Below the pieces are notes generated by a model, which did not search any database, was not told the origin of the DNA, and saw nothing but the letters and a program-made list of their open reading frames with translations. From the NCBI GenBank assembly GCA_902766925.1, contig CACXFL010000035.1, positions 1-57,665 of the forward strand: a DNA stretch of 57,665 nucleotides, written 5' to 3'. This DNA is from an uncultured bacterium (GTDB lineage: Bacteria > Bdellovibrionota_B > Oligoflexia > Oligoflexales > CACXFL01). Shown piece by piece: positions 21,801-22,904 of the stretch. The position numbers and the translations under genes are program-made. Position 1 is the first letter of the stretch, and each line of letters begins with the position of its first letter.

Positions 21801-22904
21801 TCTAAATCAAATTGGTTAGTAGATATAGTAAAAGAACTGACCACATCTCGTCAAATAGGATTTGTAAACTCTTTTAATTTAGTTACAAAAATCTTAAATA
21901 GAAATGATATTGATAATCATATAGTTTCTACACTTACTCCAATTCTTGTAAGTTTATTAAAATCAGATACTAAATCTAATAAAAATTCAACTAATGAGTT
22001 TAAAGTATTTAATTCTGAAAATATAATAAAAATTCTAATACCAATAATATCTAAACACCAAGAACTAGTGTCAGATGTTGTAGAAGTATTAAAAGATAGA
22101 TTATCTTTAACACACTCTCTATCAGGAGTAGATAGAATTAATTTAGAGATACTACAAATTAATCAAGAAATTATTCATGCAATAGATTCCTTAACTTTAC
22201 ACAAAAGAATTATTGCTCTATCAATTCTACCATCTAATCTTCTTTTAGTTATTAAAAATGCTCCATCGTCTAAATATAACTTCTATACTAAAGATACTCT
22301 GGAAAGAGCTGACGAATCGTTCTCTAAATTTATTTATGAATTAAGTCAATCTACGCTCTCAGCAATAGAAAAAACTTTAGATCTTAGAGATACTATAAAT
22401 AAAAACTTATTAGAAATTTTAAATACTAGAGAAAATTTTGCATCAGAAGAAGCTATGAACTTAAGAGAACAAACCTCTATTTATAAGGTGTTGCTAGATA
22501 AAATTTTATCAGGATATATTCCACTGGATTTAAGTGCAAAAAAATATATAGGACTGGGATATGATGTATTCTGTCTAGAAAATGGATTATCACATTACAT
22601 AGAAGTTAAATCTAAAATGTCACTCTTTTCAAAAGAATATCCACCTGTTATTACTCCTAACGAAATCAGATTTGCTCTTTCAGTACATAACAGTGACGAA
22701 AATACTAAGTATTCTTTATATATTGTACCTTTAAACAATCAAGAAAGAAAATATTACGGAGACATAATAGATGCAGATATCGATTGGAACAAACTTCAAT
22801 TTATATCAGATCATCTGAATGTATTTATATCCCGAGGAATTAACGGGAATGTTCTACTAGAAGAATTTGTAAAAAATTTGAAACGTGATCAAAGTAATAA
22901 TTAG
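18858..22904 (+). CDS. Giant signal-anchored/secreted paralog 1 of 4 (most divergent), with a C-terminal PD-(D/E)xK DUF3883-like module
   Basis: GGAG sits 8 nt upstream of the ATG at 18858 (the track uses GTG 18855). N-terminus is MLNLRYIITFLGIYTTIGVFFSIVSF. Collinear homology with the next three ORFs. The C-terminus carries ...YIGLGYDV...HYIEVKSK...TPNEIRFAL...YSLYIVPL. Confidence 0.9.
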   Translation: MLNLRYIITFLGIYTTIGVFFSIVSFCNLYSMNQDDDGLLPEECLKKFSTSDPDNMSQPGFEQSLDLSLINQDSNKTFFDRFTTINKKDPLSEKRMKIFEDYDSLKNLMPEIGYNILRMAFAYRNILKYAQENISSLPEDQKIDLYLFVLLLHYQLFPDPSKSLISLFNTDIDTKKSRSILLSILNVNSKTNFEENIKNFLQEIDSINGNSTTYITYYLSSLAHEMFSLASLDLARTTLDYISGKIEAIHHKIEALYYSVTVYLIVDKIYITSMENIPEYEQIKEIIKSQNVSLYDYVKGLSNLFTKDLYKVVSVLKTKDLIGFLKLSIKFPTLFDNPMYPYTHFTASEKELNSWILFTLATDEFIKYSQSHLKPLEDVAGLEIEIDGIYDYFSRRQKLDFLRFIAEYCEIEGDINKDRFIVSDEYISLITTVTYWISTRSSKYQFGTRIPTKDIVNIVNLITQKFIKLNDINKFFFIWFMVYMNNVYEDKIGSQATYLNKVVSMYTASHLIKNVPKISVDILEYLLEIMIPDIFTKSFVNLYNNELLSKNYILSGDILYYLLINQKFSPYLENLNFNLSYSTVNLKEILKKVYSYPLGVKTVRKLLGILGRKITSTRSLYTVLEAIEGSFCGKEISYFLDTLDVDNFIKRNPKINKNVEKYFFSINDSISFRVQKITDSGRVKINQLIYYYLLQKESPSVDEINFLIRHSNLPNSNPNKVKEIIFSSDESNFIQIILTNTPFYNENKKEVIDHILTMDSNLLKDLDQNSLIEFLKILISYQAQSTDMILDLKNFINKLLYLRNDVLETLKTECTKFSISYSDIKKYLITNAFMQKEIRHPRDKNKKEQLIKKEKEGTLRATDVEDLISDLTQSDDSSTVYEFLDIFSKLIDQEQEKKLSGNYIRNGKKEYRELQKSLNLILNMFQNISFEDKPLTKQIMFSNINENVLRYLISNINNYNNFKTLIYSIICYQIDNNIIILSKSNWLVDIVKELTTSRQIGFVNSFNLVTKILNRNDIDNHIVSTLTPILVSLLKSDTKSNKNSTNEFKVFNSENIIKILIPIISKHQELVSDVVEVLKDRLSLTHSLSGVDRINLEILQINQEIIHAIDSLTLHKRIIALSILPSNLLLVIKNAPSSKYNFYTKDTLERADESFSKFIYELSQSTLSAIEKTLDLRDTINKNLLEILNTRENFASEEAMNLREQTSIYKVLLDKILSGYIPLDLSAKKYIGLGYDVFCLENGLSHYIEVKSKMSLFSKEYPPVITPNEIRFALSVHNSDENTKYSLYIVPLNNQERKYYGDIIDADIDWNKLQFISDHLNVFISRGINGNVLLEEFVKNLKRDQSNN

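Follow-up and report, generated by a model that had tools for sequence, protein, structure and literature searches.

A four-gene array coding for giant proteins with predicted Sec-type leaders and a C-terminal DUF3883 nuclease-fold module in an uncultured diderm bacterium

What might a restriction-endonuclease-like module do at the end of giant proteins that appear to be destined for export? The question is raised by contig CACXFL010000035.1 (assembly GCA_902766925.1) of an uncultured bacterium; the whole stretch that was analysed, 57,665 nucleotides, is called the window here. Between 18855 and 35267 the window holds an array of four neighbouring open reading frames (ORFs) on the same (+) strand, each coding for a protein of ~1,350 residues (~155 kDa). 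A preliminary description of this DNA had noticed that the four paralogues end in a common pattern reminiscent of the DUF3883 domain, also named NOV_C, and that they carry N-terminal export signals, and had suggested an exported or envelope-tethered nuclease. Our results place the modules in this family and in the PD-(D/E)xK fold. They further suggest that the proteins are exported through Sec and that the C-terminal domain works as a metal-dependent nuclease once outside the cytoplasm, a reading to which we assign a probability of roughly 55%. That the proteins are exported and catalytic, what they act on and what they do for the cell are predictions from sequence.

The segments that had drawn attention (22464-22901, 26622-27068, 30707-31162 and 34815-35264) are free of stop codons, lie in frame and form the last 146-152 residues of the four ORFs. 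Translation and ORF arithmetic confirmed as exact these coordinates, the pattern, and the positions given in paralogue 1 for its Asp (22563-22565) and for E-V-K (22602-22610). The pattern is common to 4/4 paralogues, well beyond what chance would produce, and reads RE[QK]xS[IL]Y, GLGYD[VI], 12 residues, [IT]EVKSK, [ED][YF]P, I[ST]xNE, AL and Y..[LI][YV][LI][VI]PL. When the modules are isolated, all of them score above the gathering threshold of Pfam family PF13020 (26.0-29.6 bits vs 22.1; E 7e-7 to 1e-5), with 29.6 bits for paralogue 1 (residues 1190-1349, 22422-22901, +), 26.2 for paralogue 2 (26580-27068, +), 26.0 for paralogue 3 (30665-31162, +) and 28.3 for paralogue 4 (34773-35264, +), assignments that the alignments share. 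When the full-length proteins are scanned, NOV_C is called in paralogue 4 alone, at 24 bits, and a match at E≤0.01 is found in 3/10 full-length members of the family to which the paralogues belong. With a profile of 14 modules, 13 from this family and one from the classic DUF3883 protein P0016, a collection of 5.8 billion clusters yielded 18 proteins, and 18/18 carry PF13020. Compared in hhalign, a family-only and a classic-only DUF3883 profile match along 86 columns at a probability of 98.4% (E 4.9e-15), with the helix Glu, G-Y-D, E-V-K and N-E in register. These tests establish that the modules belong to PF13020 (NOV_C/DUF3883). Compared with classic DUF3883, the module has family-specific insertions and a C-terminal extension of ~55 residues, and searches of PDB sequences with the module profile and with the full-length profile gave no meaningful match.

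In paralogue 1, the candidate catalytic residues begin with E1205 (22467-22469, +), the putative catalytic Glu of helix alpha1, which never varies within the family and aligns with a Glu conserved in classic DUF3883. The Asp of G-Y-D, D1237 (22563-22565, +), is invariant in 28/28 aligned sequences, as are E1250 and K1252 of E1250-V-K1252 (22602-22610, +), the (D/E)xK motif. N1269-E1270 (22659-22664, +), at the start of helix alpha2, is family-invariant, with the Glu kept in 28/28 sequences. Thirteen family members and the aligned classic DUF3883 proteins agree at all these motif residues, and within the family they are invariant while overall identity is 19-50%.

The fold was addressed with an AlphaFold model of the module computed from an alignment of 28 rows (pLDDT, the per-residue confidence score, 91; pTM, the predicted template modelling score, 0.86), which superseded a model from the four-paralogue alignment with a mean pLDDT of 40. 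The predicted core is alpha-beta-beta-beta-alpha-beta (helices 9-29 and 79-89; strands 49-53, 56-65 and 95-103). In module numbering the model places E16, that is E1205, in alpha1 (helix 9-29), D48 (D1237) just before beta2 (strand 49-53), E61 and K63 (E1250 and K1252) in beta3 (strand 56-65), and N1269-E1270 where helix 79-89 begins. In Foldseek searches the best 50 matches in the PDB are all PD-(D/E)xK nucleases, and every named match among the best 50 in BFVD is one too; they include Hjc/Hje, HincII, EcoRV, I-Ssp6803I, RecU, VRR-NUC, a nuclease of SPARDA and a 'NO VEIN C-terminal' protein from a phage. On this modelled structure, together with the Pfam and hhalign results, assignment of the predicted fold to PD-(D/E)xK can be taken as established, in line with the preliminary description. 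The closest solved structures, at the top of the Foldseek matches, are the archaeal Holliday-junction resolvases Hjc/Hje (PDB 1ob8, 2wcw, 1gef), which have in common with the module the minimal alpha-beta-beta-beta-alpha-beta core, an Asp that precedes beta2 and an E-x-K within beta3. In contrast to the module, Hjc/Hje are small cytoplasmic dimers with another biological role, and identity is 10-19% at TM (template modelling) scores of 0.4-0.55, with no relationship at the level of sequence.

At the other end of the proteins, each paralogue has one strongly hydrophobic segment. In paralogue 1 the leader (residues 1-32, 18855-18950, +) consists of a positive n-region, a hydrophobic core at residues 8-25 and then an acidic stretch. 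The leaders of paralogues 2 (residues 1-31, 22923-23015, +, marked between ILGA and SD), 3 (residues 1-36, 27086-27193, +, between SIFA and ED) and 4 (residues 1-31, 31248-31340, +, between VIA and EG) were delimited by the same hydropathy and charge analysis against a baseline from the window; this was a hand analysis, and the cut positions so marked are putative. Across the family the n-region is positive (+1 to +5) in 14/14 leaders and the core measures 15-21 residues. The 15 residues that follow the core are neutral or acidic in 13/14, which is the arrangement of a protein with its N-terminus in and its C-terminus out. On the hydropathy scale the paralogues reach 2.0-2.6, whereas 13/13 Pfam-recognised cytoplasmic proteins of the window stay at or below 1.27, and YidC, TadE, RcpC, the T2SS-F proteins and six canonical lipoproteins lie at or above 2.1. 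An additional hydrophobic segment, marginal, occurs only in paralogue 2 (residues 1130-1149; KD19 1.61). The leaders thus show the positive n-region, hydrophobic h-region and polar c-region of the Sec type and are probably Sec-type export signals; the positive-inside asymmetry and the clean separation from the cytoplasmic proteins bear out the export-type leaders of the preliminary description.

Shortly after the leader comes an invariant motif, Cys-x3-Phe (C45-F49 of paralogue 1, 18987-19001, +; equivalents at 23043-23057, 27206-27220 and 31350-31364). Among 10 full-length members, C45 is the only invariant residue besides the start Met in the first 300 positions. In the form [DE]-x-C-x3-[FM] the motif is kept in short relatives and in all array genes read in other assemblies, and a second invariant Cys is absent from the family. 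A lipoprotein signal was considered and rejected: the conserved Cys lies 3-25 residues beyond the h-region, behind acidic residues, and there is no lipobox, while the organism's own lipobox, [ILV]-S-[SF]-C, directly follows the h-region.

How old is this architecture, and how widely is it distributed? When 1.84 billion representative proteins were searched exhaustively with HMMER, only 16 family matches came up, namely the proteins of the window itself, about six homologues of full length (1329-1361 aa), fragments, two short forms of ~415 aa and two outliers. A word-indexed protein search had missed the other paralogues and the homologues found in this way, and its negatives are unreliable for such low-complexity, AT-rich proteins. 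No relatives were found among GTDB species-representative genomes, a collection without the host genome, nor in viral contigs, and the JGI metagenomes hold a single family locus. The short forms (P0012, P0013 and L028_14249) consist of the leader, the Cys motif and the last ~330 residues, and align with residues ~980-1349 of the paralogues. Short members of ~380-470 aa stand in tandem, downstream of a long form, at three loci (L029, 1602-4256; L030, 774-3413; L028, 14249-16770). At L028 a trypsin-like protease with a lipoprotein-type signal follows the short form. The divergent 1373-aa gene beside P0011 at the same locus was considered as a further member and discarded, as it has no similarity to the family.

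The array has a constant place in the chromosome. At least five other assemblies show the order acyl-ACP thioesterase, par1-type, par2-type, par3-type, par4-type, argS. Orthologues of paralogue 1 stand at the corresponding place in L034, L031 and L032 (79%, 50% and 42% identity) and are followed there by orthologues of paralogue 2; par3-type genes occur in L033 and L026, and in L033 the par4-type gene P0007 directly precedes argS. Within the window, pairwise identity among the four paralogues is 25-45%. Because the fixed order is kept across related genomes, the paralogues are old, non-redundant orthogroups. The preliminary description had stressed four tandem copies; the genes do stand in tandem, but they are not recent, redundant duplicates.

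Conservation is unevenly distributed along the protein. Measured against the 79%-identical L034 orthologue of paralogue 1, the ratio of nonsynonymous to synonymous substitution rates (dN/dS) is 0.088 in the module and 0.30 in the body, with 0.25 over residues 801-1189; the enzymes encoded on the flanks give 0.06-0.11. The body evolves approximately three times faster than the nuclease module, and of 41 positions that are invariant in 10 full-length members 24 fall within the last 150 residues, including all candidate catalytic residues. In front of the module, a conserved pre-nuclease region (residues ~980-1189 of paralogue 1, 21792-22421, +) is common to the ~415-aa short forms. The body of ~1,150 residues has no match in Pfam, PDB sequences, PADLOC or PHROGs, block-wise hhalign detected no internal repeats in it (best probability 9%), and the content of Gly+Pro in the unannotated region is low (3.7-5.0%).

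On this basis the following mode of action may be proposed. Each ~155-kDa protein would be made with a Sec-type leader, cleaved or kept as an anchor, and most of the chain would therefore cross the inner membrane of its diderm host. That the host (GC content ~30%) is diderm is judged from its YidC, which has a periplasmic domain. The last ~150 residues would fold into a NOV_C/DUF3883 nuclease with a complete catalytic set (E1205, D1237 and E1250-x-K1252 in paralogue 1), which, with a divalent metal bound, would nick or cut DNA outside the cytoplasm, whether in the periplasm, on the cell surface or once the protein has been released. Since the ~415-aa short forms contain nothing else, the minimal unit would be the leader, Cys-x3-Phe, the ~170-residue pre-nuclease region and the nuclease. 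The fast-evolving ~950 residues of the long forms might then be a lineage-specific accessory for targeting, tethering or delivery. As it would be unfolded on its way out of the cytoplasm, the enzyme would require no immunity protein, and its role could be the digestion of environmental, prey or host DNA. A more speculative extension, which we hold to be improbable, is that paralogues 1-4 form a hetero-oligomeric extracytoplasmic nuclease machine for prey or host DNA, or for the processing of DNA at the envelope, in which Cys-x3-Phe would serve as a lineage-specific signal for sorting, tethering or cross-linking.

Several observations weigh against an exported, active nuclease. The array is not associated with any route of secretion across the outer membrane, the features of the leader are the same for a cleaved signal and for a membrane anchor, and ~85% of each protein is without an assignable function or fold. 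The Foldseek scores are modest, none reaching E≤1e-3 (best E 5.7e-3 in the PDB and 1.6e-3 in BFVD; TM 0.4-0.63), and the convergence of E/D/E/K was judged solely from their positions on the secondary-structure elements of the model. In addition, the par1-type members (paralogue 1, P0004, P0006 and P0008) have Asp-Lys at the site of a second helix Glu, the 'YE' Glu (module position 27; residues 1215-1216 of paralogue 1, 22497-22502), where the other members and classic DUF3883 proteins have x-Glu; this may possibly reflect a functional difference between orthogroups. Finally, in the L034 orthologue of paralogue 1 (JAEEGL014218452.1, 3717-3719) a single change of GAA to TAA interrupts the frame at codon 282, the rest of it being intact. 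This stop codon, due to a recent nonsense mutation or to a sequencing error, is a hint that the gene is dispensable or that the read is wrong.

Some of these features would suit other explanations. The proteins could be toxins or effectors that are secreted and carry the nuclease into a competitor, a prey bacterium or a eukaryotic host to destroy DNA there, with the variable body serving for binding or translocation. Such a role agrees with the large architecture, the N-terminal leader, the C-terminal nuclease, the paralogues lying side by side and the rapid evolution of the body, and exported PD-(D/E)xK DNase toxins such as PoNe exist (PMC6688995). Moreover, a predatory or host-associated lifestyle would fit the Tad pilus genes, the MglA-like GTPase and the weak match to a Bdellovibrio adhesin described below, as well as MnmE, whose nearest match among species-representative genomes comes from an uncultured Oligoflexales metagenome-assembled genome (41% identity). 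We consider delivery of this kind unlikely, given that no immunity gene is adjacent, that a conserved C-terminus with a variable N-terminus is the reverse of what polymorphic toxins show, that RHS, haemagglutinin (FHA), PAAR, MIX, LXG and other trafficking domains are lacking, and that the genes keep a fixed chromosomal synteny rather than residing in a mobile or variable region. The idea that the domain is a non-catalytic module, binding nucleic acids or purely structural, in giant envelope or matrix scaffolds (e.g. a matrix protein or adhesin that binds extracellular DNA) draws on the large unannotated portion with its low Gly+Pro content, on the helix Glu that par1-type members lack, and on the fact that PD-(D/E)xK domains are catalytically dead in some lineages (PMC3424549). 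Inactivated domains, however, usually lose their catalytic residues, and here these are invariant at low overall identity in a module whose dN/dS is like that of enzymes, so that we regard loss of activity as very unlikely.

Equally little probability is given to membrane-anchored nucleases that would face the cytoplasm and act against phages or plasmids, the N-terminal segment being merely an anchor. Every DUF3883 enzyme that has been characterised is a nuclease working for defence in the cytoplasm (PMC6765204, PMC11232893), and the nearest relatives outside the family are found in cytoplasmic defence or restriction-modification settings: P0015 (L035) adjoins a C5 DNA methylase gene, and P0016 (L036) lies in a defence island after a split Snf2 helicase and before a GmrSD gene. 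Faint PADLOC matches (E at least 4e-4) to TmtA and PDC-S36, in both cases to the nuclease end, point the same way. P0030, a classic DUF3883 protein of 176 aa, has N-terminal hydrophobic segments, so that association of DUF3883 with membranes may extend beyond the family. Against a cytoplasmic orientation, the charge asymmetry predicts the C-terminus outside in 13/14 leaders; the proteins have no ATPase, helicase or sensor domain and no significant PADLOC or PHROGs family match, no defence genes lie nearby, and the housekeeping flanks with synteny conserved across genomes are unlike defence islands. An extracytoplasmic nuclease remains the reading that we prefer.

The combination of modules can be compared with systems that have been described. 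The usual fusion partners of DUF3883 are ATPases, helicases, kinases or methyltransferases (PMC3424549), and cleavage or nicking of DNA by this domain has been demonstrated in YenY4I (PMC6765204) and HmaA (PMC11232893). HmaA, a Snf2 helicase with a NOV_C nickase, and YenY4I/McaZI, in which PUA/DUF3427 precedes DUF3883, belong to the same domain family as the array proteins, have the same set of E...G-Y-D...E-V-K...N-E and carry the domain at the C-terminus. Unlike the array proteins, they are leaderless, cytoplasmic fusions to helicases or modified-base sensors and are encoded in defence islands or prophages. The array proteins join a Sec-type leader to an orphan body of ~1,150 residues and are encoded in a housekeeping-flanked array of four genes. 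That the combination is unusual, as the preliminary description had held, is upheld by the settings of the nearest outside relatives and by the helicase or sensor fusions of the published enzymes.

Exported PD-(D/E)xK DNase toxin domains are known from polymorphic toxins, namely the CdiA-CT and Tox-REase domains. In Vibrio, the PoNe domain of T6SS effectors (T6SS, type VI secretion system; PMC6688995) is likewise a C-terminus with the restriction-endonuclease fold on a large protein that leaves the cytoplasm of the producer. These exported toxins differ from the array proteins in that they belong to other families, have markers of T6SS or of the type V system (T5SS) rather than a Sec leader, always stand next to an immunity gene and combine a conserved N-terminus with a variable C-terminus. 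The DNases Bd0934 and Bd3507 of Bdellovibrio (PMC7925074, PMC3593177) resemble the array proteins in having a predicted N-terminal signal peptide, in their diderm host and in the presence of several nucleases per genome, and the MnmE match suggests that the taxonomic neighbourhood may be related. In contrast, they are small single-domain proteins of other nuclease families, neither giant nor DUF3883, and no search revealed homology to the array proteins. Exported PD-(D/E)xK nucleases (PMC6688995) and Sec-exported DNases in predatory bacteria (PMC7925074) are thus already known, while nothing described so far corresponds to four genes in fixed order that code for leader, Cys motif, orphan body and nuclease and have short-form relatives.

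DUF3883/NOV_C is widespread, from bacteria to plants, and its few characterised members are all intracellular defence enzymes. A catalytically intact DUF3883 behind a secretion leader would, if true, extend the biology of the domain to the extracytoplasmic space. In the array the domain ends giant orphan proteins whose four genes have been kept together under purifying selection. The short form of ~415 aa would offer a compact unit with which the target of an exported DUF3883 enzyme could be sought, and the family draws attention to ~1,150 unannotated, conserved residues per protein and to an N-terminal Cys motif in a poorly sampled group of bacteria. The finding alone opens no long-standing question.

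The genes of the array are closely packed, with intergenic gaps of 18, 14, 82 and 135 nt and a Shine-Dalgarno-like motif upstream of every ORF. All are on the + strand: paralogue 1 (18855-22904; 1349 aa) starts with GTG behind GGAG at a distance of 9 nt, paralogue 2 (22923-27071; 1382 aa) is the same sequence as P0001, paralogue 3 (27086-31165; 1359 aa) is 45% identical to paralogue 2, and paralogue 4 (31248-35267; 1339 aa) passes the Pfam threshold for NOV_C at full length. No immunity-like ORF occurs at the array, every small ORF there being antisense or embedded in the large genes. A scan of this AT-rich DNA for promoters and terminators gave counts at or below shuffled expectation. The genes for a transfer-messenger RNA (tmRNA), an acyl-ACP thioesterase and argS flank the array. 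The tmRNA gene (17571-17930, +; tag peptide GNDYALAA) lies ~900 nt upstream. An ssrA (tmRNA) island was considered and discarded, because no attachment-site repeat was found (no repeat family touches 17571-17930), an integrase is absent and synteny is conserved in at least five assemblies; the lower GC content of the array (24-27% vs ~30% in the flanks) is its sole island-like trait.

Elsewhere in the window, a Tad/Flp-type pilus cluster (40685-47718, -) lies ~5 kb downstream of the array and codes for a TadE-like protein, two T2SS-F proteins, a CpaF-type ATPase and RcpC/CpaB; no evidence links it to the array. Another large orphan envelope protein is encoded near the array by an ORF of 804 aa (13968-16382, -), with hydrophobic segments at its N-terminus and no family match. 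A 191-aa protein (5036-5611, +) scores 22.9 bits for the Pfam Arf family against a threshold of 22.3 and is a Ras/Arf-like small GTPase, possibly MglA-like; its gene is followed by an unannotated ORF of 166 aa (5630-6130, +). Canonical lipoprotein signals with [ILV]-S-[SF]-C at their end are borne by six ORFs (12688-13476, 48488-49465, 49675-51828, 52503-52988, 53033-53671 and 54625-55725), among which are an M24 metallopeptidase and a 717-aa protein that weakly matches a Bdellovibrio MIDAS-adhesin model.

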